DNA of 64,000 nt from an uncultured candidatus Porisulfidus sp. (GCA_965215765.1 OZ244118.1:2415801-2479800), one strand, 5' to 3'. Shown: positions 1 through 61,039, numbered from the stretch's first letter. Program-made: numbers and translations. Notes: generated by a model from the sequence alone, not told the origin.

Positions 1-905
1 CTGCCCGGGCAACACCGTGGTCGGCGGCCAGCTTAAACCCTGATTGTCCTACTCTCCGGGTCAGGAAACGGCGGTCTGAGCGGGAATCCTGACTTGGGCA
101 CACGCTTCGCGCGCGTGTACGGCAGCAACAGCTATAGCAATTTCTGCAATTGTTCTTGCAGTTCTTCTTTGTGAAGGGTTCCCTAACCCTGATTGTCCCA
201 CTCTCCGAGTCAGGAAACTGCGGTCAGAGCGGAAATAGTCGGGAAACTGAAAAATGCCGCCATTGAAGCCGACTTCAACTGCCCGGGAAACACCGTGATC
301 GGCGGCCAGCTTAAACCCTGATTGTCCCACTCCCCGGGTCAGGAAACGGCGGTCTGAGCAGGAATTCTGACTTGGGCACACGCTTCGCGCGCGTGTACGG
401 CAGCAACAGCTATAGCAATTTCTGCAATTGTTCTTGCAGTTCTTCTTTGTGAAGGGTTCCCTAACCCTGATTGTCCCACTCTCCGGGTCAGGAAACGGCG
501 GTCTGAGCGGGAATCCTGACTTGGGCACACGCTTCGCGCGCGTGTACGGCAGCAACAGCTATAGCAACTTCTGCAATTGTTCTTGCAGTTCTTCTTTGTG
601 AAGGGTTCCCTAACCCTGATTGTCCCACTCTCCGGGTCAGGAAACGGCGGTCTGAGCGGGAATCCTGACTTGGGCACACGCTTCGCGCGCGTGTACGGCA
701 GCAACAGCTATAGCAACTTCTGCAATTGTTCTTGCAGTTCTTCTTTGTGAAGGGTTCCCTAACCCTGATTGTCCCACTCTCCGGGTCAGGAAGTAGCGAC
801 CGGAACAGGAATTCTGACTTGGCACACGCTTCGCGTGCGCGTACGGCAGCAACAGCTATAGCAACTTCTGCAATTGTTCTTGCAGTTCTTCTTTGTGAAG
901 GGTTC
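1..905. repeat. Tandem array, 149-bp unit (full copies starting at 38, 316, 465, 614, 763, plus a 129-bp variant unit at 187-315 whose end matches window bases 1-37). The array runs off the window start. Each full unit carries the last ~52 bp (14 codons plus stop) of the adjacent thioredoxin-like gene.
   Basis: Direct reading: 'ccctgattgtcccactctccgggtcaggaaacggcggtctgagcgggaatcctgacttgggcacacgcttcgcgcgcgtgtacggcagcaacagctatagcaa(c/t)ttctgcaattgttcttgcagttcttctttgtgaagggttccctaa' recurs with period 149. The terminal 'ctatagcaacttctgcaattgttcttgcagttcttctttgtgaagggttccc' is the reverse complement of the codons for ...KGTLHKEELQEQLQKLL* of ORF 856..1440. Confidence 0.9.
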
Positions 906-1440
906 CCTTTTTAATGAAGCGCACAACCTTGTCACGATCAATCAAGGCACTGAATGGCAGCCCGCCTGAGTCGTTGCCGAGTTCTTTGCCTAGTGCAATG
1001 GCGTCACTGAACCCGATGAGCTGGAGATATTTCACCTGCGGCAGGCTGTCAAGGAAGGCTTGGGCTGGTTCAAGTTCATCTATAGCAATTCCCACTACTT
1101 CAAAGCCCTGCTCGTGATACTGGTCACGGAAATCACTGAACACCGGAATCTCACGCAAACACGGGGGGCACCAGGAAGCCCAAAAGTTCAATAAAACCAC
1201 TTTCCCCTCCCAACTTTTGCTGGACACAGTCTCACCGCTGAGGTTTTTCATGGCAAATTCAGGAACTGTTTTGCCAAAATCCACATCTACAACCTGCGTG
1301 TTCGGTTCTTTGTGCTTCCCCTCCGGCAAATCGTACAGCGTTACCCCGGCAATGGTCGCCACGATGGCCAACAGAAGCAAATGAGGAATGAATCTCATTT
1401 TTCCAGGTTCCTTTTCGCTAAACATCTTTTCGTTGGGCAT
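856..1440 (-). CDS. Periplasmic thiol:disulfide oxidoreductase, TlpA/DsbE-like thioredoxin fold (WCPPC active site). Likely true start at the 3rd Met (coordinate 1398, MRFIPHLLLL...), which gives an N-terminal signal/anchor.
   Basis: 194-aa ORF with 'NFWASWCPPCLREIP' thioredoxin CxxC motif and a hydrophobic N-terminus. It lies immediately downstream of dsbD on the same strand. Confidence 0.8.
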   Translation of the reverse strand: MPNEKMFSEKEPGKMRFIPHLLLLAIVATIAGVTLYDLPEGKHKEPNTQVVDVDFGKTVPEFAMKNLSGETVSSKSWEGKVVLLNFWASWCPPCLREIPVFSDFRDQYHEQGFEVVGIAIDELEPAQAFLDSLPQVKYLQLIGFSDAIALGKELGNDSGGLPFSALIDRDKVVRFIKKGTLHKEELQEQLQKLL

Positions 1441-7340: not shown

Positions 7341-7877
7341 ATGAAACTCCTTCTCCTTGACCGTGACGGGGTCATCAACGAAGACGTTGGATATGTGAAA
7401 TCGGCATCTGAATGGCATGCACTACCTGGCAGTCTTGAAGCGATAGCACGCCTTAGCCAGAACGGCTGGTTTGTAACATTGGTATCCAACCAATCTGCCT
7501 TGGGCAGGAAAATCCTTTCTTTGGACAATCTGGCAGAAATCCAGGGAAAATTGCAAGCAGAGTCAGCTGCAACGGGAGCAGCCATAGCCGGACTGTCCTT
7601 TTGTCCCCACCTGCCAGACGCCGGTTGCGAGTGCCGCAAACCAGCCCCCGGGATGCTTCTGAACATTGCCAAAAGGCTGGATGTCAACCTGGCAGAAGTC
7701 CCATTCATTGGTGACAAGCTAAGCGACATACTTGCTGCCAAAGCTGCAGGGGCGCGCCCTATGCTGGTTTTGACAGGGCAGGGAAAGGAGGATGTAAAGA
7801 ACCCCGGCTTCCCAAGTGATGTCCCTGTTTACCAGGATTTGGCAGAAGCCACGGACCAACTGTTATCCGCTCACTAG
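7341..7877 (+). CDS. gmhB: D-glycero-beta-D-manno-heptose-1,7-bisphosphate 7-phosphatase (HAD-IIIA, histidinol-phosphatase-like)
   Basis: 178 aa. 'LLLDRDGVIN' HAD motif I, 'CxHxxxxxCxCRKP' Zn-binding motif ('CPHLPDAGCECRKPAPGM'), 'IGDKLSDILAAKAAGA' motif III. Confidence 0.85.
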   Translation: MKLLLLDRDGVINEDVGYVKSASEWHALPGSLEAIARLSQNGWFVTLVSNQSALGRKILSLDNLAEIQGKLQAESAATGAAIAGLSFCPHLPDAGCECRKPAPGMLLNIAKRLDVNLAEVPFIGDKLSDILAAKAAGARPMLVLTGQGKEDVKNPGFPSDVPVYQDLAEATDQLLSAH

Positions 7878-8930
7878 ACCCGTTTCCAGGATCCAAAAAC
7901 GTAGCCTGGCTCAGCAATTGCGTGCTGCGCGCTGTACCCGAAGACGCGTATCAAGCTATGTGTTTTTTGCGGGTACCCTGGCCGGACGAAATCTGGCAGA
8001 AATCCAGGGAAAATTGCAAGCAGAGTCAGCCGCAACGGGAGCAGCCATAGCCGGACTGTCCTTTTGTCCCCACCTGCCAGACGCCGGTTGCGAGTGCCGC
8101 AAACCAGCCCCCGGGATGCTTCTGAACATTGCCAAAAGGCTGGATATCGACCTGGCAGAAGTCCCATTCATTGGTGACAAGCTAAGCGACATACTTGCTG
8201 CCAAAGCTGCAGGGGCGCGCCCTATGCTGGTTTTGACAGGACAGGGAAAGGAGGATGTAAAGAACCCCGGCTTCCCAAGTGATGTCCCTGTTTACCAGGA
8301 TTTGGCAGAAGCCGCGGACCAACTGTTATCCGCTCACTAGACCCGTTTCCAGGATCCAAAAAACGTAGCCTGGCTCAGCAATTGCGTGCTGCGCGCTGTA
8401 CCCGAAGACGCGTATCAAGCTATGTGTTTTTTGCGGGTACCCTGGCCGGACGAAATCTGGCAGAAATCCAGGGAAAACTGCAAGCAGAGTCAGCCGCAAC
8501 GGGAGCAGCCATAGCCGGACTGTCCTTTTGCCCTCACCTTCCAGACGCCGGTTGCGAGTGCCGCAAACCAGCCCCCGGGATGCTTCTGAACATTGCCAAA
8601 AGGCTGGATATTGACCTGGCAGAAGTCCCATTCATTGGTGACAAGCTAAGCGACATACTTGCTGCCAAAGCTGCAGGGGCGCGCCCCATGCTGGTTTTGA
8701 CAGGACAGGGAAAGGAGAATGTAAAGAACCCCGGCTTCCCAAGTGATGTCCCTGTTTACCAGGATTTGGCAGAAGCCGCAGTCCAACTGTTATCCGCTCA
8801 CTAGACCCGTTTCCAGGATCCAAAAAACGTAGCCTGGCTCAGCAATTGCGTATCGCATGCTGTACCCGGAAACGCATATCAAGCTATGCGTTTTTGCGGG
8901 TACCCTGGTCGGAAGAAATCTGACAGGCGG
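7531..8930 (+). repeat. Tandem triplication, about 462-bp unit (copies 7531-7993, 7994-8454, 8455-8915, then about 15 bp of a fourth). Each copy carries the 3' 115 codons of gmhB plus about 120 bp of downstream sequence.
   Basis: Near-identical blocks read directly. ORFs 7816..8340 and 8382..8804 are read-through frames that re-enter the duplicated GmhB C-terminal frame ('...AEIQGKLQAESAATGAAIAGLSFCPHLPDAGCECRKP...LLSAH'). Confidence 0.9.
8870..8895 (+). terminator. Candidate intrinsic terminator: 9-bp stem aaacgcata / tatgcgttt, 6-nt loop, followed by a T-run
   Basis: Read directly in the last (most distal) repeat copy. The corresponding hairpin is imperfect in copies 1-3. Confidence 0.35.
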
Positions 8931-13017: not shown

Positions 13018-13752
13018 TCACACGCGCTGGAACTGCAAGTGACAGGTCGCCCTTCCCTTCTTGAGAGCTTTCGCTTCAAAACGGGTACTGACCCACCAGT
13101 GCGGCGGGCGGCAAAAACCATCCTTGCTTTGAGACAGGTTTCGCAAATGCGCACTGCTGTGCAAGACGCCAAGCATGTAGTCGGCGTAGTCTCGTTCATC
13201 AGTCACCAGGTACAGCAGGGCACCCTTTCCAAGCACCTGTTCCAGCAGAGGCAGTAAATCCGGACTGACCAGACGGCGTTTGTGGTGGCGGCGTTTAGGC
13301 CAAGGATCGGGAAACAGGATCAGCATCCTCGCGCAACTTCCCGCCGGAAGTAATTCCGCGAACACTCTCCTCGTGTCTCCGTGGAATATTTTCAGGTTCT
13401 TTAAGCCCAGCTCTTCAGCCCTCATCATGAGCCGGGCGATGCCGGAGCGAAAGACTTCAACCCCCAAAAAATTTTCATCCGGATTATTTTGCGCCAGAGA
13501 TACCAAGGTTTCGCCGTTGCCAAAACCTGCTTCGACCGTGAGAGGGGTATCTGCGGCGAGCCAGCTATTCGCGAGCAAAGAGGAGGTTTCCGGTAGCTGG
13601 TAGTTCTTCCAGTGTTTGTCCCAGGCTTTTTTCTGGGCATTTTTGAAGTGTCTGCCACGGAGCACGAAGCTGGGCAAGTAGCGATATCTGTCAGGGGTTT
13701 GATTGACCTGTTTGCGCCGCAGAATCGCGGCTGACATTTTCGCGGTCGGCAA
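13018..13752 (-). CDS. trmB: tRNA (guanine46-N7)-methyltransferase
   Basis: 244 aa. 'VEAGFGNGE' SAM motif and 'LFPDPWPKRRHHKRRLV' TrmB signature. Confidence 0.88.
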   Translation of the reverse strand: MPTAKMSAAILRRKQVNQTPDRYRYLPSFVLRGRHFKNAQKKAWDKHWKNYQLPETSSLLANSWLAADTPLTVEAGFGNGETLVSLAQNNPDENFLGVEVFRSGIARLMMRAEELGLKNLKIFHGDTRRVFAELLPAGSCARMLILFPDPWPKRRHHKRRLVSPDLLPLLEQVLGKGALLYLVTDERDYADYMLGVLHSSAHLRNLSQSKDGFCRPPHWWVSTRFEAKALKKGRATCHLQFQRV

Positions 13753-13779
13753 TGCTGTGGTTTTTGGCAGACGAAGCGC

Positions 13780-14586
13780 TCAGTCGAGCAGTCCTGTTTC
13801 AGGCGAAGAACTGCTGGCAAAGCGACGCTTTGTCATGCGTCCGGCCAGGTAGGCAGCACGTCCTGCCTGTACTGCCAGATTCATGGCATGTGCCATAGTT
13901 ACAGGTTTCCTGGCCATCGCGATTGCGGTGTTCATCAACACGCCGTCGCAGCCAAGTTCCATCGCAATGGCAGCGTCCGAAGCAGTTCCAACTCCGGCAT
14001 CCACAATTACCGGCACCCGCGCGTTCTCTACAATGCTGCGAATATTGCCCGGATTGCGGATACCCTGCCCTGAGCCTATCGGTGCGGCCAAGGGCATCAC
14101 AGCCGCGCAGCCGATTTCTTCAAATCGTGTCGCCATAACGGGATCGTCGTTGGTGTACACCATCACCTTGAAGTCTTTCCGGATCAGCAGTTCTGCTGCT
14201 TCCAGCGTCTGTATGACATCCGGAAACAAGGTTTTTTGATCAGCGAGCACCTCCAGCTTGACAAAAGAATGTCCGAGCAATTCACGCGCGAGCAAGCACA
14301 CACGAACTGCGCTTTCTGCCGTGTAGCAGCCAGCCGTGTTCGGAAGAATGAACCAGCGATCCGGGCCCAGTGTTGACAACAGATCCGGTTCTTTTGTGGC
14401 ATGTTCCAAATTCATTCGGCGCAAGGCGACGGTCACAATCTCGGCTCCGGAAGCCAGCACTGCCGCTTTGCTTTCTTCCAGATCCCGGTATTTTCCGGTT
14501 CCAACCAAAAGACGCGAAGTGAACGATTTATCGGCAATAAGCAGTTTTTCAGTCATCGGCAATTCCCGCTGTTTTCCATGTCTCAT
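13780..14586 (-). CDS. thiG: Thiazole synthase ThiG. Alternative, likelier start [12 protein letters not shown] at 14556.
   Basis: '[19 protein letters not shown]' and '...[14 protein letters not shown]' ThiG family signatures. Immediately downstream of thiS. Confidence 0.9.
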
Positions 14587-15329
14587 CCCCGTTAACCGCC
14601 ACCAATAGCCCGAACAATTTCAACCGCATCGCCATCTTCGAGAATACATTGATCGTATTCATCGCACGGTACAATCTTGCGGTTCACTCTTCCAGATCCC
14701 GGTATTTTCCGGTTCCAGCCAAAAGGCGCGAAGTGAACGATTTGTCGGCAATAAGCAGTTTTTCAGTCATCGGCAATTCCCGCTGTTTTCCATGTCTCAT
14801 CCCCGCTAACCGCCGCCAATAGCCCGAACAATTTCAACCGCATCGCCATCTTTGAGAATGCATTGATCGTATTCATCGCACGGTACAATCTCGCGGTTCA
14901 CTCTTCCAGATCCCGGTATTTTCCGGTTCCAGCCAAAAGACGCGAAGTGAACGATTTATCGGCAATAAGCAGTTTTTCAGTCATCGGCAATTCCCGCTGT
15001 TTTCCATGTCTCATCCCCGCTAACCGCCACCAATAGCCCGAACAATTTCAACCGCATCGCCATCTTCGAGAATGCATTGATCGTATTCATCGCACGGCAC
15101 AATCTCGCGGTTCACTCTTCCAGATCCCGGTATTTTCCGGTTCCAGCCAAAAGGCGTGAAGCAAACGATTTGTCGGCAATAAGCAGTTTTTCAGCCATCG
15201 GCAATTCCCGCTGTTTTCCATGTCTCATCCCCGCTAACCGCCACCAATAGCCCGAACAATTTCAACCGAATCGCCATCTTCGAGAATGCATTGATCGTAT
15301 TCATCGCACGGCACAATCTCGCGGTTCAC
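14474..15329 (-). repeat. Four tandem 214-bp units. Each spans the thiS 3' end (last ~35 codons incl. ...VRAIGGG*), the 20-bp intergenic spacer and the thiG 5' end (first ~33 codons). The outermost copies are the genuine gene ends.
   Basis: Marker 'tcatcggcaattcccgctgttttccatgtctcatcccc' recurs at 14553, 14767, 14981 and 15195. Homology begins at 14474 inside thiG and ends at 15329 inside thiS. Confidence 0.9.
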
Positions 15330-15434
15330 TTCGGCGGCAAATAATTGCCCGTCAAGATCCAGCTTGCCAAGTAATCCCCCGAGGGTCAGCCCTTGGGGAT
15401 ATTCGTTCTGATGCCCGTTTAACTTGAGATTCAT
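15234..15434 (-). CDS. thiS: Sulfur-carrier protein ThiS (66 aa, C-terminal GG)
   Basis: 'MNLKLNGHQNEYPQGLTLGGLLGKLDL...[14 protein letters not shown]' with the typical ThiS length and GlyGly terminus. The longer ORF-track frame is rejected. Confidence 0.85.
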   Translation of the reverse strand: MNLKLNGHQNEYPQGLTLGGLLGKLDLDGQLFAAEVNREIVPCDEYDQCILEDGDSVEIVRAIGGG

Positions 15435-15674
15435 GATCCTTTCTGCCTGGCCAAAGTCAGCGTTTATGACCTTCCTCGCTATACTACCCGAAGTCTTTGT
15501 CAGGCCTTTGTGCAGTCGTGGCTCCTGCCTGAGAAAAACTACTTCTGTGCCGAAAAAAGAACCTGTTCGCTCCGCATGATTCGACCCGATGACTTTTACA
15601 AGCTCGAACAAAAACTTCTTATGGCCAAGGCTGTCAGCGACCTTTCATCTTGCTTTCTGCCACGGTGATTTTCC

Positions 15675-16739
15675 GTGAGCTTTGAAATGCCCCACCGTTG
15701 TCTGGTTGTAGGCGGCGGCGTACTGGGTCTGTTTACGGCTCTCAAGCTTCGCAAGCTGGGCTGGCAAGTGACTTTGCTGGAGAAACAAAGCCTGGGAGCC
15801 GGGGCGAGCTCGGCTGCAGGCGGGATCCTGAGCCCGCTGTACCCTTGGCGGCAAAGCCGGAAAATAAATTGCCTGTTCAGCCAGTCTCTGTACGCATACC
15901 AGAGATTCTTTCGGGAAACAGCGGCATTGGGGATGAGAGTGGCTTATTCCCAACCGGGCTTGTTTTGCCTGGATGTTGAAGAGCACCCCATGGCGCGCAA
16001 GTGGGTCGCATCCCGACACCTTTCCCTGGAAACATGGCCTCGCCGGCGACTGCGTGCCGTCTTTCCGCGCTTGCGCGCTGGCAGTGGCTTTTTTCTGCCG
16101 GATGTTTGCCAAGTAGATCCGGTCAATTTAATTGCCAGGCTGACGCAACTGGCGACTCATCATGGGGTTCGTATTCGTGAAAATATGTCAGTCCGAAAAT
16201 TGCTGCTGCGCAACCGTATGGTTGGCGGCGTGATTTGCGAGCGAGAAGAAATTCGCGGTGATGCCGTCGTGATTTGCGCTGGCGCATGGTCTAAAGAGCT
16301 GATTCCCACAGCACAAAAATGGTGCCCGGTACGCCCCGTAAAAGGACAAATCATCGAGTACCGTACAAAACCGGGACTATTGCCACATATCGTGTTGCAC
16401 CGTGGAAAGTATTTAATTCCCAAACCGGACGGACGGATTCTTGCCGGCAGCACTTTGGAAAATTCCGGCTTTGACACCACACCGACATCCGCCGCTCGCG
16501 TCGAACTGGACAGCTTTGCCAGGAGCGTTCTTCCAGGACTTTCCATATACAAAATATCTGATCAGTGGGCAGGGTTGCGCCCCGGACTCGCCACGCCCTT
16601 CGTGGGGGCACATCCCGATATTAAAGGCCTTTTTCTCAATACCGGACACCACCGCAATGGAATCGTGCTGGCATCCGGCTCAGCAGACTGGATTGCTGCG
16701 GCGTTTGCACGGCTAATCCTCAGAAACAACCCGGCTTGA
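15675..16739 (+). CDS. thiO: Glycine oxidase ThiO (FAD-dependent)
   Basis: 354 aa. 'CLVVGGGVLGLFTALKL' FAD-binding motif. Divergent from thiS-thiG, as in many beta/gamma-proteobacterial thi loci. Confidence 0.8.
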   Translation: MSFEMPHRCLVVGGGVLGLFTALKLRKLGWQVTLLEKQSLGAGASSAAGGILSPLYPWRQSRKINCLFSQSLYAYQRFFRETAALGMRVAYSQPGLFCLDVEEHPMARKWVASRHLSLETWPRRRLRAVFPRLRAGSGFFLPDVCQVDPVNLIARLTQLATHHGVRIRENMSVRKLLLRNRMVGGVICEREEIRGDAVVICAGAWSKELIPTAQKWCPVRPVKGQIIEYRTKPGLLPHIVLHRGKYLIPKPDGRILAGSTLENSGFDTTPTSAARVELDSFARSVLPGLSIYKISDQWAGLRPGLATPFVGAHPDIKGLFLNTGHHRNGIVLASGSADWIAAAFARLILRNNPA

Positions 16740-17426
16740 ACTTTTTGCCTGCTACGCCACGGCTCGGAGCCAGCTCGGAGCCATCCCGGAGTCGTTCCGG
16801 TGAAGCGCGCTGCCTGTCGCAACATCCGGCTCAGCAGACTGGATTGCTGCGGCGTTTGCACGAGGCTAATCCTCAGAAGCAACCCGGCTTGAGCTTTTTG
16901 CCTGCTGTATACCGGCTTCGGAGCCATCTTGGAGCCGTTCCGGTGAAACGCGCTGCCTGTCGCAACATCCGGCTCAGCAGACTGGATTGCTGCGGCGTTT
17001 GCACGGCTAATCCTCAGAAGCAACCCGGCTTGAGCTTTTTGCCTGCTGCGCCACGGCTCGGAGCCATCTTGGAGCCGTTCCGGTGAAACGCGCTGCCTGT
17101 CGCAACATCCGGCTCAGCAGACTGGATTGCTGCGGCACTTGCACGGCTAATCCCCAGAAGCAACCCGGCTTGAGCTTTTTGCCTGCTGCGCCACGGCTCG
17201 GAACCAGCTCGGAGCCATCTCGGAGCCAGCTCGGAGCCAGCTCGGAGTCGTTCCGGTGAAACGCGCTGCCTGTCGCAGCATCTGGCTCAGCAGACTGGGT
17301 TGCTGCGGCGTTTGCGCGGCTAATCCTCAGAAGCAACCCTGCTTGAGCTTTTTGCCTGCTGCGCCACGGCTCGGAGCCATCTCGGAGTCGTTCCGGTGAA
17401 GCGCGCTGCCTGTCGCAACATCTGGC
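16672..17426. repeat. Tandem array of about 140-150-bp units (about 5 copies, one 181 bp with internal gagccagctcg sub-repeats). Each repeats the last ~22 codons and stop of thiO. The array fills the whole gap between convergent thiO and the ATPase gene.
   Basis: 'catccggctcagcagactggattgctgcggcgtttgcacggctaatcctcagaagcaacccggcttga' recurs at 16672 (genuine), 16823, 16966, 17106 and about 17287, with a truncated copy at about 17418. Confidence 0.88.
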
Positions 17427-35406: not shown

Positions 35407-38400
35407 TCAGCGAATCATACCGCCCAGGAATACCCTCAGGCGCAATTTCTTGACGTGATGCGGACCTGGTCTCGGCGTTGTCGGGATCTCGGGATCCCAG
35501 TTGATAAATTGACTCACTCCTGGCAGCTCAGCCACGCTGTCCCGAGGGAATGCCCGGACTTCGTACGCGACACCGCCCTGCAACCCCGTAAATTCCATCC
35601 TGACGGCTCCCCCGGGCGTCGGCATCGCAACAGACTGTTCCTCTATCAGTTCCCCGTATGAAAGCAGTTGTACCCGATACCCCAAGCCGAGCAATATTCC
35701 GTCAACCGGGGCTCCGAAATCAGCATGATCCGCAGTGCGTCCATAGCCATCATTCCCCGAATATTGCAAGTGTACCTGCACACGACCATTCGCCTTGTGC
35801 ATCAGCTGCATGGCCAATGTTCCCTCAAGAACGTCGAGCAAGGTAAATGCTGCTGTGCCCATCGCGCCCGTTCCGGCGCGGTTGACTGCCCGGAGCGAAT
35901 AGCGTATCTGCTCTCCTCCTGCGTGCTTCTTGCGCAGCTGCACCACGACATGGCCTGACAACACATAAGAAGTGGCGGTTCCCGAGACGGGGTGGCTTTT
36001 TCCGTCCACAAAAAGCTGGTAGCTGTCTATCGTCGCCCCGTTGCTGCTCGCCGCTTCCCAACTCAGGTTCACCCGATCTGCGGACTTCCACCTGGCTCGC
36101 AAGCCCGAAGGTCTGCCAGGCACCGCTATGGTGCTGAACGCGCTTCTGTTTTCGGATGCCTGGGCGGGCTCCCCGGTGCCAGCCCGGTTGCGTGCATAGA
36201 CCTGTAACGAATAGCTTCTCTTCGGCAGCAAGTCGGTGATCTCAATCTCGGTGTCAAAAGCACCTGCCGAGAAAAAGGTCTCGGTGCTGCGTCCTCCAGC
36301 ACTCACCACCACCACGTAGCCAAAACCGGAGCCTGCAACGCGATCAGAGGAAGACGCAAGCGCATCACCCGCCAGGGGAGCGCAATCGTCATGTCCCATG
36401 ATCATCAACACCAGGCGCGCAGTGGTTTGCCCGGGCACCAGCTCCGTTATCGTCGTCGCGCCCGGAAGACCGGGCAAATAGAAATGACCGACCGCCGGAT
36501 AGCCAGCGACATCTCCGCGCACAGCGCGAAGACGGTACGGGTGGGGGCAAGCCCCCTGGCTGTTTTTCCGAAACTCAGCCAGAAAATCTCCGTTGAAGTC
36601 AAAAGTCGGTGCTGTGACTTCCCGTATTGTTCCTGCCAGTTCAAGTTCGTACGAATCAACCGCTGGACTTCCCGCCGCCCAAGTAAAGCGCAGATGATCC
36701 GGAGATTCCCAGCTCACCGCCAAATCAACCGGTGCGGCAGGAATGTCGACAAGCGCGCGCAGCAAGGGCAACGTGCGGGTATTGCCAAAATGCCAGGCTC
36801 CCGGTTCCCAGCCGGCATAAGTCGTGGCACCTGCGCATCTTTGCCCCGCCGCAGTCGGGCAACGCAGCTGGGTCAGAGTGCGAGGTAAAGCACCTTCCGT
36901 CAAGCCACTGCCCACCAAAGATGCCTGTGCAGACACGGGTGCGTAACTGCGATCAATCACCGCATCCGGAGCAGAATAACCCGCCAGACTCCCGGTGCTG
37001 CCCGATTCCCCAACAACCCTGTTCGCTGCATAGCTGTCCTGTATGCGGCGGATATTGTTTCCGACCAGTCCCCCGATAGAGAAATGACCCCGCACCTCAC
37101 CGAGTGCATAGCTCGCATGGACAGAACCCGAGTTGATGCCCACCAGTCCGCCAACACGGCTATCTCCGCTGACCGACACGTCGGCATAGCTGTAGGCAAT
37201 GGTGCTTCCGCTGTAGCCGACCAGACCGCCGGCGCGCGAGCCGTCCACAGCGATGGCCGAACCTGTCGCGTAACAGTGCAAAATCGTGCTTCCCTGGCTA
37301 TAGCCAACCAGACCGCCAGCATTGTCCCGCCCTTCACCCGTGACGCGCACCGCCGCATCGGCACTGCTGTGCAAAATAGCGGCTCCCAGAGCCAGACCGG
37401 CCAGACCACCGGCAGACTCAAGCGCGCTTACTTGCGAAGCCCTCACCGTGCTGCCCACGACCCGACCTTTTGCTTTCACATAACCGACCAGACCGCCGAC
37501 GTATCTGCCCCCGCCAACCTCGGCACTGGCACCACTGTTGATCAACAATCCTCCGTTGCCACCCGCCAGCCCGCCAATGTTGAGCCCGGCTCTGTTGCCG
37601 GAAATCTGTGCGGACTTCACAACGCTGTTCATGACGGTTCCGTCGTTAAAGCCGACCAAGGCTCCGACGCTGTTTTTTCCTTTTACCCACGCATCAACGA
37701 GCACCACATCTTTGACGATCCCGTCTATTGCAACTCTGGAAAACAGGCCAACCGTATCCGTCTCCGGGCGGTTAATGTGCAGAGCAGAGATTTGCCGCCC
37801 TGCCCCGTCGAAAGTGCCTGAAAAAGGCTCTATCGGATGAAAACCGGCGCCGCCTGACCACTCCCGACTCGACCGGGCGTCAATATCTGCCACCTGCACA
37901 TAGTGAGCGTGCAGATCAGAGCGCACATCCTGCAGTTGGCACAACGTGCCAATTTGCCACGGGTTGTCGCCGCTGCCGTCACCCTGCGCACTTTTCAGAC
38001 CCTTGCCGGCGCATCCCGGAAAGCGGGTCACCGACCCGGATCGTTGACGGCGATCCGGTGCCCACCGTGTTATGGGCGAAGGCTTCCAGCCGATATGCAA
38101 AGGCACTTTTAAGCTCCGTAAATTCCATTGTGACCGGGCTCAGAGGACTCCCCAGCGGAATGTCGCGTTCTTCAACCAGCTCCCCGGACGCATACAGATG
38201 TATCCGGTAAGCCAGGTGCAAAGCCATGGCTTCCGCTGACGTTGCGTAATCAGCGTCACCCGGTTTGCGACCGTAGCCGTCATTGGCCGGGGCTGTAAAA
38301 CTGAGTCTCAGCGTGGAGACCCCCGGCACCACGTGCATATCAGCCGGAGAACCAGGAACATCCAGCAGGCGCACGGAAACACGGGCAGCTTCGCCAACAC

Positions 38401-41400
38401 CATAAAGGTTGTAGCCACGAACCGTTAAAAAGAGCGTATTCCCGCCTTCATGACGGGCGCGCAGCTTCTGCAACCAGTCCGATCCTCCCACGTAGTACAA
38501 CGATGCGGTTTCCTCAGCAGCGATCGATGGAGCCTCAATCCGGTAAGCGATCAGTTCTTTGGTGTGAAGCGGAGGCTCCCAACGCAGCAACAAGGCAGAC
38601 GGGGATTTCCACTGCGCGAGCAGGCGCAAGGGTTTGCCAGGAGTCTCAAAGCCCTGCAGAACCGGCAGCGTCCTGTAATCTCCGAAGGACCAGATCTCGG
38701 CACTCCAGCCTGAGTATGTTGACCTTCCCGCACACGCCAGGCCGGGGGCGGTGGGACAACGCAGTTGCTGTAGCGTCCGCAAGGAGCCTGATCCCTGCCC
38801 GGCGTCATCTGCCACAAAAGGCATGCCGCCACCATTGGGGCCATTGACGCGAGGCAACGCTGCTGCGTAGCTGTCGGTAATGCCTTCCGAACTGCTGCCG
38901 GCAAAACTTCCGGACTGTCCGGCTCCGGACACCGAGCCTGCCGCATAGCTGCGGCTGACGGTGCCCTGATTGTTTGCCACAAGACCCGCGACCAGACCTT
39001 CCCCGGTCACAAAAGCTGTTGTGTAACTGTCAGTCACCGAGCCCCGGTTGTCTGCGACCAGACCACCCGCCCGAACTGCTCCTGACACCGAGCCTCCGGC
39101 ATAGCTTGTATCAATACTCCCGGTTACCAGATTTCTTCCGACCAGGCCACCCGCTACTTGGCCTCCCGGCTCTGCCGTCAGCTGTGCCGCGCTGCCGCTG
39201 ATCATGCCTGCGTTGATACCGACGAGTCCTCCCGCCACTTGCCCGCCAAAAAGTGAGCCCGTCACCCCGCTGTTCACGATCCTTCCTCCCTCGTTCCTGC
39301 CCGCCAGAGCACCCACGTTGACGCTTCCCCAAAGCTGTGCGTTCACCAGCACGACCTGCTGCAATAACCCGCCCCGAAGCTGCGCAAACATGCCGACATC
39401 TTCCAGCGCCTCAGAGCGCACCCTTAAATGGAAAATCTGATGACCGGCGCCATCAAGGGAACCGGAAAAATCAGCAATCGGCGCAAAGCCTTTTCCGGCT
39501 CGCCAGTCCCGGGATGGACCTGCCTCAATATCGCTTGCCAGCCGGTAGTGGGCTGCAGGAACAGAGCGAATGTCCTGCAATTGGCACAGCGTGGCAATCT
39601 GCCAGGGATTGTCCTCGCTGCCCGAACCGCCTGCCGATGCCAGGGCTTCCCCGTCGCACTGCCAGGGACGGGTAAATGCCGACAGGAAAAATGACGACCC
39701 TTCTCCAACATTGTTATAGGGCGTCGCCTCCACTTCATAGCGGCTATTGCTTGCCAGACCCGAAAATTCCACAACTGCGGATGTTTCGCCAGCTGTGTGC
39801 GCACGCTCCCGCTCCTGCACCAGTTCTCCCCCGGCGTACAACCGTACCCGGTAACCCAAACCTGAAGAAACCCCGACACTCGTATATCCGTAAGCCGGGT
39901 CTTCCGGTGATTGGCCGTAGCCGTCGTCAGCCGGAGCCATAAGAAACACCTGCAGCGAAAATGCCTGCGCCGATGCCCGAACGACCGTCAATTTGCCTGG
40001 GGCTCTCAGCAGTCTGATCACAACCGTCGTCGCTTCGCTCATGCCATGGCGGTTATATCCACGCACGCTGACTTGCAAGGTACTGTCCCTATATTCGGAA
40101 CGGAGGTTTTTCACCAGGTGCCTGCCGAGCGTAAAAGATGCGGATCCCGTTTCCAGGGAACGCCCTGCCACCTCCACCCAATAGCCGGCGTTCAGACTTC
40201 CTGTTTTCGCGGCTGTCCAGTTCAGTTCCAGATCACCTTCCAGGTTCCATCGCGCCTGCAGGCGTGAAGGGGGAGCAGGTGGCACTGCTTGCAGGGCGCG
40301 ATGGGTCGGGAGCGTCTGCTCGTCCCCGAAATACCAGATTTTGGTGCTCCAGCCGGAGTAACTGATTGCTCCCTGGCACGTGTCTCCCGGCAAAAGAGGA
40401 CACTGCAATTGCGCCAGCGTGCGGGAAAAATTGTTTTCTGTGGCGTCCTCTTCCCCGCTGCCCACGAGTTCCAGCGCGCTGCTGCCGACACCCGGCTCCA
40501 AGGCGTAATTCGCAACCATATCGGTGCCCACGGATTGCCCCACCAGCATGCCCGCCTGATTGTTCCCGTTAACCAGACCTGTCGCATAACTGTCCTCAAT
40601 ACTGATGTTTCTGTTGCGGAAGTGACCACTGTTTCCCGCCAGGCCGCCTACCTGCACATTCCCGCTGACCGAACCAGTCGCATAACTGTCGTCAATCGAG
40701 CCTCGACTGGTTCTTCCCACCAGCCCGCCTGCCTGCACATTCCCGCTGACCGCTCCGGTCGCATGGCTTCTGAGGATTGACCCTGAGTTGAGACCCACCA
40801 GACCTCCCACACGGTCCCCCGCGCCGATAACCATGCTGTCCGAGTAGCTGTCAACTATGGAATAGGGATGATCGTGCTGACCCACCAACCCGCCCACATC
40901 CTCTACCCCATTGACCGCTCCTGCCGAATAAGAGCCGCTTATAAAGCCATGGTTATAACCCGCCAGCCCGCCTACATATTGATGCCCGCTTACCGTTGAC
41001 TGCGCGTGGCAGTGGTAGATCGGAGCCACATTGAACCCCACCAGCCCACCAACACTGTTTGCGCCGCTCACACTTCCTCTCGCGTGCGAACTGCGTATCC
41101 TCGCGCCCCAGGCATTCCTGCCCACCAGTCCGCCTATCATGTTGCCGTGCCTCTGGAAATCAACCGTTCCGACAACGGTAGACTCCGAATGGCTGAGCTT
41201 GATTAAGCCATGATTCTCACCTGCCACTCCTCCCACACGATTCCGCCCGCCTATCAACCCAGTCACCGTGCTGCCCTTGATGCTTCCATTTGCCGCAACG
41301 CGTCCTGCCAGGGCTCCTGTTGCATTTCTGCCCCGCACCGTAACATTCACGAGTGCCAGCCTTTGCAGAGCACCACCGTTGAGCTTCCCGAACAGCCCGA

Positions 41401-44400
41401 CATGGTCTGCTTGCCCAGGATTGATCAAAAGACTCAGAATACTGTGACCACTCCCGTCCAGAGAGCCGGAAAAAGATTCAATCGGTGGAAAACCCTTTCC
41501 GTCTCGCCACTCGTGGCTTTGCTTCGCGTCTATATCGTTTGCCACCCGATAATCAGCTGCCGTGTCGTAACGTATTTCATGCAACTGGCAAAGTGTGCCG
41601 ATCTGCCAGGGGTCATCCTCGCTGCCAGAGCCCGCTGCCGTTATCACCGCTGCCCATGGACACGCGCCAACGTAGGTGAAAACCGGTGCTATCACCGTTG
41701 TTGAGCCTGCGCCCGTCTTGTTTCTGGCAAACATCCTGACTTCGTACCTGGAACCACCTTCCAGGCCTGAAAACTCCACTACGGTCGTGCTTGACCATTC
41801 CTGCTGTGTCACACGCCGCACTTCTTTCAACAGGCCTTTTGAAAACAGTTGCACGTGGTATGCGAGATCCAGCGCAACTCCGCCTGCCGGCTCCCCGTAC
41901 ACGTTGCTGCCCGGTGCGCGTCCGTAGCCATCATCAGCGGCTCCGGTAATGGTGACCTGTATTGTTGACAGCCCCGAAGCTGTCTGAGTCCCCACCTCCC
42001 CCGGAACTTTCATCAAATGGAAACTTCCCGACGCTGCATCTCCCGCAACGCCTCCTTTTACGCCGCGTATGGAATAGTGGATTTCACTGCCGCTGACGTA
42101 ATGCTCACGCAATTCAGCCATTAATGAGCCGCCAAGCGCGAAACGGGTTCCCTCGGTGTCTCGAATGATTCCGCCCACCTCCACCTCAAAAGAATTCACG
42201 GCAACTCCTTGATGCCACCCCCACTGCAGCGTCAATCCACCTCTCGAATTCCAGTTTGCACGGACTGCATGCGGGGCAACGGGAACATCCGTAACTGTCC
42301 GGAGCACGGGCAGCATGCGAGAGTTCCCGAAATACCAAATCCTCGTATCCCAACCCAGATACACACCAGCTGCCCGACAAAGATTGACGGGCAACATCGA
42401 GCACTTCATCTGCTCCACGGTGCGCAAATCACTGCCCTGTACTGCACCGTTATCCTCGCCCAGGAGGCTGTCCCCGTCGCCCAGCTTGCTGGCATAACTG
42501 CGGTCTATCGTGCCACCATTGACTCCGACCAGCCTGCCCGGCAAATCAGTTCCGCCTACAGCACCCGTGCTATAGGCACTTCTGACCAAGCCGCTGTTTT
42601 CGCCGACCAGTCCACCTGTCTGACTGTCTCCGGTCACTACGCCTCGTGCGTAACTGTTACCAATGCTTCCCCAGTTTTCGCCGACCAGACCCCCAACCTG
42701 GTTCTTTCCAGTCACACGTGCGTTCACGTTTGTATGGCTGTTCACGATGCTGGCGTTGCCCCCGTTCACACCCACCAGACCACCTGCCTGACTGCCTCCG
42801 GACACCGGGCCTTGTGCGTAGCTGTCACTGATGCTTCCCTTGTTATCGCCGACCAGACCACCTGCCTGACTGCCTCCGGACACCAGGCCTTGTGCGTAGC
42901 TGTCACTGATGCTTCCCTTGTTATCGCCCACCAGACCCCCAACCTGGTTCTTTCCAGTCACACGTACTCGCCCGTTTGTATAGCTATTCACGATCCTGGC
43001 GTTGCCCTCGCTCACACCCACCAGACCACCCACCTGACTGTCTCCGGACACTACGCTTTGCGCGTGGCTGTTGCTGATGCTTCCCCAGTTTTCGCCGACC
43101 AGACCCCCGACCTGGTTCTTTCCACGTACTTGCCCCTTGCTGTGGCTACTCACGATGCTGGCGTTTTTCAGGTTCATACCTACCAGACCGCCTACCTGAC
43201 TGTCTCCGGACACCGTGCTCCACGTGTAGCTGTCACTGATGCTTCCCCAGTTTTCGCCGACCAGACCCCCGACCTTGTTCTTTCCACGTACTTGCCTAAG
43301 TGCATGGCTACTCACGATCCTGGCTTCGTTCACACCCACCAAGCCCCCAATCCCGGGGGCTGCTCCGACAACATAGCTCTCCGTGTAGCTGCCACTGATG
43401 GTGCCGCCAAGGTGCCAACCCACCAGACCACCCACGTAGCCCCTCCCTGAGGCATGAGTCCCGGTCACATCTCCAGTCGCATCGCTGGAAGTGACCGAAC
43501 CCCTGTTTTTGCCCACCAGACCTCCGACTTGATTGCCTCCTGTTACTGCACCCCTCGCATGACTGCCCACAATCGTGCCACCGTCATTCTGACCCACCAG
43601 ACCGCCGGAAACCCATGTGTTGCGAGAATTCTTCCCAACCCTTACCGTCGACGTGCTGTTACGAATGACACCGCCCCGATTCAGGCCAACCAGCCCACCG
43701 ATGGTTTTGCCCCCGTCAACCTTGCCATCAACCATGCTGCCCTCAATCGTCCCCCGATCGTTCAGCCCAACCAGAGAACCGACATTCACTCCGCCGTTCG
43801 TCGAAAAATTCACCAGCTTCACGCGCTTCAGCAAGCCACCCTGCAACTCGCCAAACAACCCTGTGTTCTCGAATTCTCCGGCTGTTGCACTGACCTTCAA
43901 ATTGGAAATTTTGTAACCGTTGCCATCATAGGTGCCAGAAAAACCCTTGATCGGTGCAAAACCGTCTTTCCAGCCATGCGTCATCGTCGTTGCGTCTATA
44001 TCCTTGATCTGGACGTAGTGCGACTGAGGCGATGCTTCCATGTCGCGCAAATGGCACAGGTTTTCTACCTGGTAGGGATCAGTTTCAGTTCCGGAACCTG
44101 CCATGGCCTGCGAACTTATAGCGCACGCCTGATCTGGATCCATGTAGGGAAATTGGCTGCCGTTGTAATAGGTGTCTCCGTAATTGAGAATGTTGAAGGC
44201 TCTTTCGTCCGTGTAAATCCCTCCCATCCCATAATAAAATGAGGTGCAATCCCGACCCTCCTCGCCCGGATGGGCATTTAGAACCCCTATCATCATGCCG
44301 GTCTTTTTATAAAATGCGGATGAGCCGGACGCTCCAAACGTAGGAGAGATGCCCTTATACGTTAAATCCAAAAACCAGCAAATCGCTCCTTCGCAGAAAG

Positions 44401-45664
44401 GCGGGCCGCCTCTCTTACCGCCGACGCTCCCGAGTGAATCGGTCGCTGCCACTGCACTTTCAAACTCACCCAGCTGCTGAGGCTTGGAGCCAGAGTGGTG
44501 TACGGAGAAACCACTGAAAGTATCGGTAGTGCGGGTCATCCACTCCAGCAATTTATAATCTCCGTGCCCGATAAACCGTCCAGTAAGACGCACAATCGCC
44601 CAATCTCCACCCTCATCTCCCGGCACTCTTGCCTTTCCTGCCACGTATCTCACACCAAAGGCGTATGAATCACCAGGAAGACCGATGAAGAATGGCAAAA
44701 ACGGTTTGTCCACAGTGTTAGCGTACGCTTCAGGGAAAAGGTGAAACGCTGTCAGAATGTAGGGGGCTCCATCACCTGACTTGTTCTTTATAAAACTCCC
44801 AGTCCCGCAGCCAGCATCTCCGCCAAAATAGCGGCACATGCTTACGACACCTTTGGTCACATCCCGCACGTAAGCCGGGCTGTCGCTGTTTACATAGTTA
44901 TTGTTACCGGAAACAAATTCGTTGATGTTTGCGCGCTCGCAACTGTCGGCTTGTCTCCGAGGTGCCAGGTTCCTGACTCCCTCTCCGTATAAAACTCCGT
45001 TGTTATCCTTAAATGTGTGGCTCACTTTTTCGACCGAAAAAGGAAAATCGCCTGGCTCCAGGTGGTAACTGTCCGGAACCCAAAACTCTATGACAACGGT
45101 ATCACCAGACACCGGGAACGCCACAAAGCTGCCATCATTACGTGACAAGCCACGTCCCGTGTACTCTACGACCTCTTCATTGCTGTCTCCGGCGAAGGCA
45201 TAGACATTCACCGACATGCCCGGGTCGAGGGGAAACCCAGAAAAATGCAACCACAGCTGCAGGGCAGACGGAGAGCGAATCTGCGCCTGCCAGACATCAA
45301 GACCGTCTTCCTGTTTGACCAGTGCCCAGTTGGAACGCCTTAAATGGACGTCCCGGGCAAAGCTGGTGTAGTTGATCGTTGTCTCACGGAGCAGTTCACG
45401 AATTTGCTCTTGTTCCCGGGTACTGAAAGGCCCCAAGTCCAGTTGCTGTGCGCGGGCAGGATACAGAGTTCGAGTGGCTTCCCGGGCATTCCTCCCCTCC
45501 GAAAAGGGATAGGACGCATAGCCTTGATCTGCCAGAGATTCCTGATCCTGGCCGAAAACAAGAGAGCTCGACGTGATGATAGATACACCCACGAACAGCC
45601 ACTTCAGCCAACCATGGCTGCCGGAAATCTGCGTATCCGAAAATCTGAAACCTGCTTCTTTCAT
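35407..45664 (-). pseudogene. Giant GLUG/S1-protease paralog 2 (about 3,419 codons), interrupted by a +1 frameshift near 38044-38048 (ORF 37979..45664 of 2561 aa, then ORF 35407..38106 of 899 aa). Could be an authentic pseudogene, or a sequencing/assembly error in a repeat.
   Basis: The two ORFs overlap by 128 nt. Paralog 1 has 'gggtcaccgtccggatcg' where paralog 2 has 'gggtcaccgacccggatcg'. The protein is collinear with paralog 1 on both sides of the break ('...STIR' | 'VTRFPGCAGKGLKSAQGDG'). Confidence 0.65.
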
Positions 45665-47305
45665 TGTGAGTGCTTACGAGCCATGCGGGCAGAGAAAAGA
45701 GAGCCTGGCCATCCTGAGACATAAAATTCCCTGCACCACATTCGCTATCTGTTCTTCATGGCTACGCACTGAGCGATCCTCTGGCTCTGACCTTCACTCA
45801 CTCTCTGATGTCCCAGTACGGCTGTACGCGGTCAGGATACAGAGTTCGAGTGGCTTCCCGGGCATTCCTCCCCTCCGAAAAGGGATAGGACGCATAGCCT
45901 TGTTCTGCCAGAGACTCCTGATCCTGGCCGAAAACGAGTGAGCTTGACGTGATGATGGTTACACCCACGAGTAGCCACTTCCGCCAACCATGGCTGCCGG
46001 AAATCTGTGTATCCGGAAATCTGAAATCTGCTTTTTTCATTGTGAATGCCTACGAGCCATGCAGGCGGAGAAAAGAGAGCCTGACCACCCTGAGACATAA
46101 AATTCCCTGCACCACATTCGCTATCTGTTCTCCATGGCTGACGCACTGAGCGATCCTCTGGCTCTGACCTTCACTCACTCTCTGATGTCCCAGCACGGCT
46201 GTACGCAGGCAGGATACAGAGTTCGAGTGACTTCCCGGGCATTCCTCCCCTCAAAAAAGGGATGGGACGCGAAGCCTTGTTCTGCCAGAGATTCCTGATC
46301 TTGGCCGACAGCAAACGCGCTTGACGTGATGATGGTTACACCCACGAGCAGCCACTTCAGCCAACCATGGCTGCCGGAAATCTGCGCGTCCGGAAATCTG
46401 AAACCTGCTTCCTTCATTGTGAATGCCTACGAGCCATGCGGGCGGAGAAAAGAGAGCCTGACCACCCTGAGACATAAAATTCCCTGCACCACATTCGCTA
46501 TCTGTTCTCCATGGCTGACGCACTGAGCGATCCTCTGGCTCTGACCTTCACTCACTCTCTGATGTCCCAGCACGGCTGTACGCAGGCAGGATACAGAGTT
46601 CGAGTGGCTTCCGGAACATTCCCCCCCTCAAAAAAGGGATGGGACGCGAAGCCTTGTTCTGCCAGAGATTCCTGATCCTGGCCGAAAACGAGTGAGCTTG
46701 ACGTGACGATGGATACACCCACGAGTAGCCACTTCCGCCAACCATGGCTGCCGGAAATCTGTGTATCCGGAAATCTGAAATCTGCTTTTTTCATTGTGAA
46801 TGCCTACGAGCCATGCAGGCGGAGAAAAGAGAGCCTGACCACCCTGAGACATAAAATTCCCTGCACCACATTCGCTATCTGTTCTCCATGGCTGACGCAC
46901 TGAGCGATCCTCTGGCTCTGACCTTCACTCACTCTCTGATGTCCCAGCACGGCTGTACGCAGGCAGGATACAGAGTTCGAGTGACTTCCCGGGCATTCCT
47001 CCCCTCAAAAAAGGGATGGGACGCGAAGCCTTGTTCTGCCAGAGATTCCTGATCCTGGCCGAAAATGAGTGAGCTTGACGTGATGATGGATACACCCACG
47101 AGTAGCCACTTCCGCCAACCATGGCTGCCGGAAATCTGTGTATCCGGAAATCTGAAATCTGCTTTTTTCATTGTGAATGCCTACGAGCCATGCAGGCGGA
47201 GAAAAGAGAGCCTGACCACCCTGAGACATAAAATTCCTTGCACCACATTCGCTATCTGTTCTCCATGGCTGACGCACTGAGCGATCCTCTGGCTCTGACC
47301 TTCAC
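45665..47305 (-). repeat. 4.3 tandem copies of a 377-bp unit that duplicates the giant-gene 5' leader (about 150 bp) plus start codon and first ~68 codons. Each copy ends in an 80-aa signal-peptide ORF (MKKADFRFPDTQISGSHGW...).
   Basis: Start codons of the leader-ORFs at 46040, 46417, 46794 and 47171 (period 377). Breakpoint just after codons '...RTLYPA'. Confidence 0.9.
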
Positions 47306-47719
47306 TCACTCTCTGATGTCCCAGCACGGCTGTACGCGCCGAAAAATCACTAGTGGGTCAATTGTACAAAATAACGCCCATTTCAGCAAATTATTATAAG
47401 AAGATACCGGCCTCATCCGACCGGAAAACCCCGAAAACAGTACCAAGGTGTGCAGTCTTATTTGTGAGCTTTTTGGTCTCCAAGGGGGTGAATCAGTGGC
47501 AATAGTCGGCACTGCAACTTCCTGTTTTTAACCACGAAAAACGTGAAAGTTGGTATTTGCAATTCGTATGATTTCAGTTTTGTGACAGCTTCCAAAGTTC
47601 ACCAAAAGCCCCAATTCAAGGCCTGTTGTTTTAAGACAATTCAACAGTTGTGCTTCATGCTCATCAACAATGTTTGTCATGGCAGATATAGTCAGGCTTA
47701 TGGACTTGCTTTAAAGGTT

Positions 47720-48421
47720 CACCCTCTGTGCCTTAAAAGAAGTGCTCCTTATGGGAAACTCCTTCTCCGGACACTCCTGATCCACTGCCTCAAGAAAACC
47801 ACACCTTCATCAGAAAACAAAACCCTTTCGTTTTTTCGGGCTATTAAACTCGTGGTTCATGGTTTCTCTCCAGTTGCCCGGGCTCTTCATCAAAGGAATG
47901 CTCCTTATGGAAAACTCCTTCTCCAGACACTCCTGATGCACTGCCTCAAGGAAAATACACCTCACTTCCCTGAACCGCATGGCATTCATCAGAAAACAAA
48001 ACCTTTTCGCATTTTAGCGGTTATTAAACTCGTGGTTCATAGCTCTCTCGCCAGCTGCCCGGGCTCTTCACCAAAGGAATGCTCGTTATGGAAAACTCCT
48101 TCTCCGGACACTCCTGATGCACTGCCTCAAGGAAACCACACCTCATTTCCCTGAATCGCATGGCATTCATCAGGAAATAAAATTTTTCGTATATTTCGCG
48201 GTTATTAAACTCATGGTTCATAGCTCTCTCGCCAGTTACCCGGGCTCTTCACCAAAGGAATGATCCTTATGGAAAACTCCTTCTCCGGACACTCCTGATG
48301 CACTGCCTCTTAGAAACTCCTTCTCCAAACACTCCTGGCACACTGCCTCAAGTAAGCCACACATTCATCAGAAAACAAAACCTTTTCGCGTTTTTCGCGG
48401 TTGTTAAATTCGTGTATGCCC
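47720..48421. repeat. Downstream repeat family, about 181-bp unit (about 4-5 copies), abutting the stop codon of paralog 3
   Basis: '(t/c)tattaaactc(g/a)tggttcat' at 47842, 48022, 48202 and 48402. 'ttatgg(g)aaaactcc' at 47749, 47905, 48086 and 48267. Confidence 0.85.
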
Positions 48422-60700: not shown

Positions 60701-61039
60701 TCCCAGCACGGCTGTACGCGCCGAAAAATCACTTAGTGGGTTAATTGTACAAAATAACGCCCAATCCGGCAAATTATTATTAAGAAGATACCGACCCCAT
60801 CCGACCGGAAAACCCCGAAAACAGTGCCAAGGCGTACTGTCTTATTTGTGGGCTTTTTGGTCTACAAGGGGTTGAATCAGTGGCAATAGTCGGCACTGCG
60901 ACTTCCTGTTTTTAACCGCGAAAAACGTGAAAGTTGGTATTTGCAATTCGTATGATTTCAGTTTTGTGACAGCTTCCAAAGTTCACCAAAAGCCCCAATT
61001 CAAGACCTGTTGTTTTAAGACAATTCAACAGTTGTGCTT

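Follow-up and report, generated by a model that had tools for sequence, protein, structure and literature searches.

The locus described here raises the question of why the junction between thiS and thiG should be present four times in tandem, and whether its repetition tunes the expression of thiG or is a tolerated rearrangement of local coding sequence. The locus lies in a stretch of 64,000 nucleotides, termed the window in what follows; coordinates given without a contig name refer to the window. The genes at the locus are:

15434..15234, minus strand: thiS, intact, 66 aa, ending ...VRAIGGG (PF02597); its last 31 codons lie in array unit 1.
14556..13780, minus strand: thiG, intact, 258 aa, thiazole synthase (PF05690); its first 28 codons lie in array unit 4.
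13018..13737, minus strand: trmB-like methyltransferase gene (PF02390), directly downstream of thiG.
15675..16739, plus strand: thiO-like FAD oxidase gene, DAO family (PF01266), divergent from thiS.

Proteins identical to ThiS and ThiG of the window are encoded on contigs L081-L084 and carry PF02597 and PF05690 (ThiS: L082; ThiG: three contigs). ThiG is 97% identical to sister-species ThiG and 68-73% identical to many thiazole synthases. The trmB-like gene probably shares the thiG transcript. No TPP riboswitch (RF00059) was detected upstream of thiS, and no Rfam family matched at gathering score anywhere in the window; a scan of 13700-15800, which includes the region upstream of thiS (15435-15674), returned no family at E <= 1. 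A 268-aa form of the ThiG ORF (13780-14586) is identical to protein P0122 (2,997,607-bp NCBI/ENA record); if the window belongs to that record, the genome of the species is about 50% larger than those of its closest relatives (1.92 and 2.00 Mb). Exact-protein look-ups of the 268-aa ThiG form, of the 38-aa decoy ORF described below, of TrmB and of P0122 returned no record.

The array was delimited in the window by using Tandem Repeats Finder (TRF; 14474-15330, period 214, 4.0 copies, 96% matches, 0% indels, score 1595). A gap-free alignment of the four 214-bp units shows 14 variable columns out of 214; chance cannot produce a repeat this long and this similar. The units, with boundaries from TRF and the gap-free alignment, are listed in mRNA-strand order:

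15329-15116, minus strand: array unit 1.
15115-14902, minus strand: array unit 2.
14901-14688, minus strand: array unit 3.
14687-14474, minus strand: array unit 4.

Read in the mRNA direction, each unit runs from thiS codon 36 through codon 66 and the stop codon, across a 35-nt spacer and over the first 28 codons of thiG, so that no complete gene is held by the unit (31 thiS codons and 28 thiG codons only). The spacer is free of variation among the four aligned units of the window, and the ribosome-binding region and thiG start codon of the internal units are identical to those of the real thiG. Consecutive units are joined at GGAAGA/GTGAAC, a new junction at which microhomology between the parental sequences is limited to 1 nt. 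A TGA created at this junction ends the three internal thiG starts (termed decoys here). The resulting ORFs finish in ...YRDLEE and have 28 codons when counted from the ATG (MTEKLL...) that is conserved in the sister species and lies 35 nt past the thiS stop, or 38 codons when counted from an upstream in-frame ATG, which is species-specific and lies 5 nt past the thiS stop. The GTG that opens each following thiS tail overlaps the decoy stop (GTGA) at every junction. The fragments within the array are:

15112..15228, minus strand: decoy thiG 5' ORF of unit 1, 38 codons, conserved ATG at 15198, ending at the junction TGA.
14898..15014, minus strand: decoy thiG 5' ORF of unit 2, conserved ATG at 14984.
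14684..14800, minus strand: decoy thiG 5' ORF of unit 3, conserved ATG at 14770.
15020..15115, minus strand: thiS tail fragment of unit 2, 31 codons, opened by a GTG that overlaps the decoy stop before it (GTGA).
14806..14901, minus strand: thiS tail fragment of unit 3, a 31-aa GTG ORF.
14592..14687, minus strand: thiS tail fragment of unit 4, a 31-aa GTG ORF directly upstream of the real thiG.

An initial annotation of this DNA had recognised a 214-bp junction present four times, which was confirmed by TRF and the gap-free alignment, and had placed three extra junction copies between intact thiS and thiG, as is borne out by the full-length ORFs at the array edges. The in-frame stop that it read at the end of the three internal thiG starts (...YRDLEE) is the TGA at the GGAAGA/GTGAAC junction. 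Its dimensions had to be corrected: the spacer, given there as 20 bp, measures 35 nt to the conserved ATG or 5 nt to the species-specific upstream ATG, and the "about 33" thiG codons are 28 or 38, depending on the start. The thiS tails, which it took to lack a start, do lack an ATG; each is opened by the GTG that overlaps the decoy TGA, and a restart codon is therefore present. An overlap of -4 is the commonest coupling arrangement.

Searches for elements that might act on expression or on rearrangement gave negative results. No sigma-70-like promoter or intrinsic terminator was detected in the 214-bp unit, the RNA structure of the unit gave no signal against shuffled controls (z = -0.6), and the unit has no inverted repeats; a hairpin-mediated template switch was likewise rejected. 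The composition of the unit on the mRNA strand is G65 A58 T49 C42, and sequence that is G-rich rather than C-rich in this way (G65, C42) is poor for Rho loading. BLAST searches of the unit against the window and the related loci gave matches at the thiS-thiG locus only.

The other haplotypes of the locus are four contigs of the same species in the ENA metagenome assembly ERZ25071281, an assembly to which an exact-protein look-up of ThiG had led. The number of units and the distance that separates the thiG ATG from the thiS stop are as follows:

Window: 4 units, 677 nt.
L081: 4 units, 677 nt.
L082: 5 units, 891 nt.
L083: 3 units, 463 nt.
L095: 3 units, 463 nt.

In all five haplotypes the distance is 35 + 214 x (n-1) nt, each unit being exactly 214 bp long. 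The non-repeat flanks are 99.2-99.3% identical to those of the window (0.71-0.79% difference, about 0.75%). Only one junction is present in the sister species, both in L001 (a Candidatus Oxydemutatoraceae MAG with a 1.92-Mb chromosome, ca. 91% nucleotide identity), where thiS and thiG are separated by an 88-nt spacer, and in L094 (a 2.00-Mb circular contig, 88% ThiG identity). The spacer of 35 nt in the window and that of 88 nt in L001 differ by a 53-nt indel. An array at the thiS-thiG junction is absent from all 79 other gammaproteobacterial thiG loci examined (1.25 Mb); a long-period array was found in one of them (L050), about 700 bp upstream of thiG. Of these controls, about 12 belong, by the style of accession and isolate name, to the same long-read MAG series, and none of the 12 has an array. 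JGI metagenome contigs were also scanned with a junction 19-mer; the nine single matches were discarded as chance matches, since BLAST placed them outside any thiS/thiG context. Because contigs of the same species carry 3, 3, 4 and 5 units and the sister species a single junction, the array is a genuine copy-number polymorphism (VNTR/minisatellite).

The 88-nt spacer of L001 also bears on the regulatory role proposed in the initial annotation, according to which ribosomes leaving thiS meet decoy starts before the real one, with effects on coupling and on the ratio of ThiS to ThiG. Such decoy initiation would fit the anatomy of the array; the spacer of the sister species indicates that tight coupling was no ancestral requirement. 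The accompanying statement that the pathway needs a 1:1 complex was too strong. ThiS is a recycled sulfur carrier.

The age of the array can be placed relative to these lineages. Units differ from each other by 2.3-5.6%, compared with 0.71-0.79% for the strain flanks, and as the units diverge more than the flanks, the array predates the strain split. The array therefore originated later than the split from the sister species and earlier than the divergence of the present strains, and its copy number is still changing. Over the 19 units of the five haplotypes, the variants are distributed as a mosaic. A T2A variant that is found within a decoy in the window is found within the functional thiG in L095; sequence therefore moves between units. 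Some variants are tied to position: in each of the five haplotypes the last, functional unit has T at column 184 (Val18, shared with the sister species), where all 14 decoys have C (Ala18), and T at column 61 (Ser56) is confined to first units. Distinct edge units together with shuffled internal units are the product of unequal exchange, so the pattern at column 184 needs no selection. Units 2 and 3 of L081 differ at one site, which points to a recently gained unit in that haplotype. Transitions outnumber transversions 13 to 1 within the array of the window; for all arrays taken together the ratio is about 4:1 and equals that of the strain flanks, from which it follows that no special mutational process acts on the repeats. 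A RIP-like or deamination signature, suggested by the 13:1 ratio of the window, was rejected on the same comparison.

The unique parts of the two genes (thiS codons 1-35 and thiG codons 29-258) contain nine polymorphic codons in the five haplotypes, nine synonymous and none non-synonymous. Random mutation at a 4:1 transition bias is expected to give a synonymous fraction of 0.32 (P = 3e-5 for 9:0). Thus thiS and thiG have remained under purifying selection alongside the array, and the array therefore does not silence thiG. In the decoy fragments, nine synonymous and seven non-synonymous variants were counted (random expectation 31% synonymous, P = 0.03); the comparison of functional parts (12:2) with decoys (9:7) gave P = 0.12 in the Fisher test. 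Decoy fragments alone carry L6P and R15C (thiG heads) and E to K (thiS tails), changes that would be likely to harm a working protein. As the source of the slight synonymous excess among the decoys, we prefer variants imported from the edge units, which are functional; weak selection could also produce it if the decoys are translated. All 14 decoys retain an intact start codon and reading frame, as is also expected by chance, because substitutions are few and indels are absent.

The thiS-thiG array is one of several in the window. With thresholds of period >= 100 bp, >= 2.5 copies and >= 85% identity, 8 arrays were counted in the 64 kb of the window against 1 in the 1.25 Mb of the 79 control loci, a difference of about 150-fold. 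The arrays of the window have integral copy numbers (4.0, 3.0, 4.0, 5.0, 6.0), junction microhomology of 0-8 nt and unit divergence of 3.5-9%; for the arrays other than thiS-thiG, divergence was taken from BLAST and MAFFT alignment, since 1-nt indels prevent slicing at a fixed period. Further arrays are:

7527-8926: 464 bp x 3, covering two-thirds of a HAD/GmhB-like hydrolase gene (its 3' part) and 113 nt downstream.
16672-17431: units of 140-173 bp, about 5 copies, the 3' end of thiO.
314-908: 149 bp x 4; the repeat begins within the final 52 nt of a TlpA-like redoxin gene (856-1440, minus strand).
45445-47337: 377 bp x 5, the upstream region and first ca. 73 codons of a giant GLUG/fn3 repeat-protein gene.
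58451-60720: 377 bp x 6, the 377-bp unit of the GLUG array at a second giant ORF (a Pfam match is known for the first only).

Every array of the window takes in a gene end. Arrays internal to one gene would break it, which would explain why only boundary-spanning arrays are seen, presumably as the outcome of selection on duplications that arise at random positions.

Several details of these arrays were recorded. In the HAD/GmhB-like array an intact 178-aa copy (7341-7877) comes first and is followed by two 5'-truncated copies; L081 has about 3.5 units with indels, L082 has 3.0 units up to the contig end, and L094 has a single 180-aa gene. The thiO-tail array contains an 11-bp GCTCGGAGCCA sub-repeat at 17196-17247, and the thiO tail is present in 7-12 copies in the four other haplotypes and in one partial copy in L001 and L094. 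Two units of the redoxin array are identical, and a detached copy lies at 36-236. The 377-bp unit also occurs as a single copy at 34691-35065; each extra unit gives an 80-aa decoy ORF, and the ca. 73-codon start includes a hydrophobic N-terminal segment that resembles a signal peptide. The giant gene that was scanned with Pfam (37979-45664) has GLUG and fn3 matches; its whole module has undergone segmental duplication, and 181-bp arrays lie at 47806-48309 and 61188-61901.

In the sister species, a junction array with an architecture like that of the thiS-thiG array is present at the overlap of a T2SSE gene and the next gene; this array is absent from the window. The arrays of the sister species are:

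L094, 2082-3309: 244 bp x 5, the last ca. 55 codons of a T2SSE-type ATPase gene and the start of the overlapping gene.
L001, 1818-2317: 245 bp x 2, T2SSE/next-gene array.
L001, 15170-16327: 106 bp x 11.

The best reading of these counts appears to be that the lineage is unusually rich in long-unit arrays, and that the thiS-thiG array is one of many rather than a device specific to thiamine.

From the observed anatomy of the array, its polymorphism, its relative age and the continuing selection on thiS and thiG, we propose that an illegitimate tandem duplication was followed by unequal exchange or slippage, and that the product is a tolerated, nearly neutral and strain-polymorphic minisatellite of local coding sequence; on the comparison of sequences this is probably the correct explanation. 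The duplication would have had its endpoints at thiS codon 36 and thiG codon 28, with 1 nt of microhomology, and would have created a 214-bp direct repeat. From two copies on, unequal homologous exchange or replication slippage could change the number in whole-unit steps and lead to the 3-5 copies found. Since the endpoints lie in two adjacent genes, one complete copy of each is left at the edges of the array and no gene is lost; and since every unit reproduces the native thiS-thiG junction, the real thiG keeps at least 131 nt of native upstream context. Tolerance would be favoured by a unit without a detectable terminator, promoter or stable RNA structure. During translation, a chain of short ORFs, in which a truncated thiG (28 or 38 codons) leads through GTGA to a thiS tail (31 codons) and then through the spacer to the next truncated thiG, may hold ribosomes on the mRNA. 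The consequence would be a few useless peptides and an operon longer by 214 nt per unit, that is, a near-neutral array. Its persistence would be accounted for by a lineage that forms or tolerates arrays at an unusual rate, in which only arrays that span gene ends and break no gene survive selection.

Were the array instead an adaptive rheostat or contingency locus, the number of decoys would be selected to tune thiG (and trmB) relative to thiS through decoy initiation, lost coupling or polarity, and fast changes in copy number would spread expression among cells of the population. The range of 3-5 copies among close strains (flanks less than 1% apart), four of them from one assembly, is what a contingency locus would look like; every decoy has an identical ribosome-binding region, ATG and open frame; the GLUG-gene arrays are similarly built from a 5' end plus upstream region; and there is the slight synonymous excess among the decoy variants. 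We nevertheless consider this reading unlikely. Arrays that consist of 3' ends only (the thiO tail with 5-12 copies, the HAD and redoxin genes) show the same dynamics, and a mechanism based on decoy starts cannot apply to them, which weakens the case for tuning at thiG. Turnover is slow compared with classical contingency loci, as the units have diverged by 2-6%; one junction with an 88-nt spacer suffices in the sister species, and no regulatory element was detected in the unit. A broader version of the same idea is about equally doubtful; it supposes that the lineage (Candidatus Oxydemutatoraceae relatives) might possess a heritable and mechanistically distinct tendency to build and retain long-unit tandem arrays at the boundaries of genes, with a density above 100 per Mb, and that start-region arrays (thiG, GLUG) might act as attenuators or boosters tunable by copy number, a contingency system made from the junctions of housekeeping operons.

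The repeated fragments could also be thought to encode functional micro-proteins, either a 31-aa ThiS C-terminal peptide with the GG end or a 28- or 38-aa ThiG N-terminal peptide, acting on ThiF or ThiG. The GTGA gives the thiS tail a possible restart codon, the frames are open throughout and the weak synonymous excess would be expected; against this, radical changes are tolerated in both kinds of fragment (L6P and R15C in the heads, E to K in the tails), V18A is present in all decoy heads and in no functional thiG, the fragments would be too short to fold as ThiS or ThiG, and like fragments of unrelated genes occur in the window, so that we regard such a function as very improbable. Least credible of all is an assembly artefact, in which strain variants or noisy long reads would have been misassembled as tandem copies. 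All of the sequences are indeed long-read metagenome assemblies, some at only 6x coverage, and repeats are known to cause assembly errors (PMC6868369). The identical novel junction was found on five independent contigs, however, in exact multiples of the unit and without indels, and the divergence between units is four to five times that between strains, whereas the unrolling of haplotypes would make the two equal. The array of 857 bp is far shorter than long reads, and 78 of the 79 control loci are free of arrays, including the ca. 12 that apparently belong to the same long-read MAG series.

With a nearly neutral minisatellite as the preferred explanation, the locus offers a natural experiment, in which one to five copies of a native intercistronic junction stand between co-translated genes that are still under selection. 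The series of arrays can be used to study decoy starts and termination-reinitiation in operon expression, and provides ready-made strain markers; in automatic annotation, such arrays give rise to spurious small ORFs and "pseudogene fragments". Long-unit tandem arrays about 150 times more numerous than in comparable genomes raise a question about replication or repair in this uncultured gammaproteobacterial lineage. In the literature searched, neither junction-derived arrays nor a richness in repeats turned up for this family; the one paper found to name the genus Oxydemutator places it in a sponge microbiome (PMC11685487).

Among known systems, the duplication-amplifications described by Anderson and Roth resemble the proposed origin, in that illegitimate or short-homology joining is followed by homologous unequal exchange and the genes at the endpoints are spared except when a single gene contains both endpoints. 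In the classical case the amplified segment spans kilobases to hundreds of kilobases and includes whole genes; it is selected for dosage and soon disappears. In contrast, the thiS-thiG array holds no complete gene, and its divergence of several percent marks it as long-lasting. Borg repeats are short, perfect, A-rich units with a length that is always divisible by three inside ORFs (PMC9879509). They share with the present arrays a genome-specific high density, independent origins and copy variation within a population, and some start at gene ends; the arrays of the window differ in having diverged units of 140-464 bp with ordinary composition and lengths that are not multiples of three.

MIRUs contain short ORFs with a 4-nt stop/start overlap that is thought to sustain downstream translation (PMC12548453). 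They are likewise tandem units of variable number between co-transcribed genes, and the 4-nt ORF overlap is found here as GTGA; by analogy, this overlap and the repeated native junction could act in translation as a MIRU does. MIRUs form a dispersed and apparently mobile family of short units, whereas the 214-bp unit occurs only at thiS-thiG.

The closest likeness is to the VNTRs or minisatellites used in MLVA typing, which are defined by head-to-tail repeats and by changes of copy number in whole units between close strains, both of which were found here. Evolution by slippage or unequal exchange, with edge units unlike internal ones, is a further common property. The thiS-thiG unit differs in being long (214 bp), in having diverged by 2-6% and in being a copy of a local gene junction rather than an intergenic or in-frame protein repeat. 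Alignments of E. coli genomes yielded 18 non-PU minisatellite variable loci in total (PMC2884548), and the density of 8 arrays per 64 kb in the window is far above normal bacterial values. The thiS-thiG array thus qualifies as a VNTR or minisatellite, and the unusual part is the density of arrays throughout the lineage.
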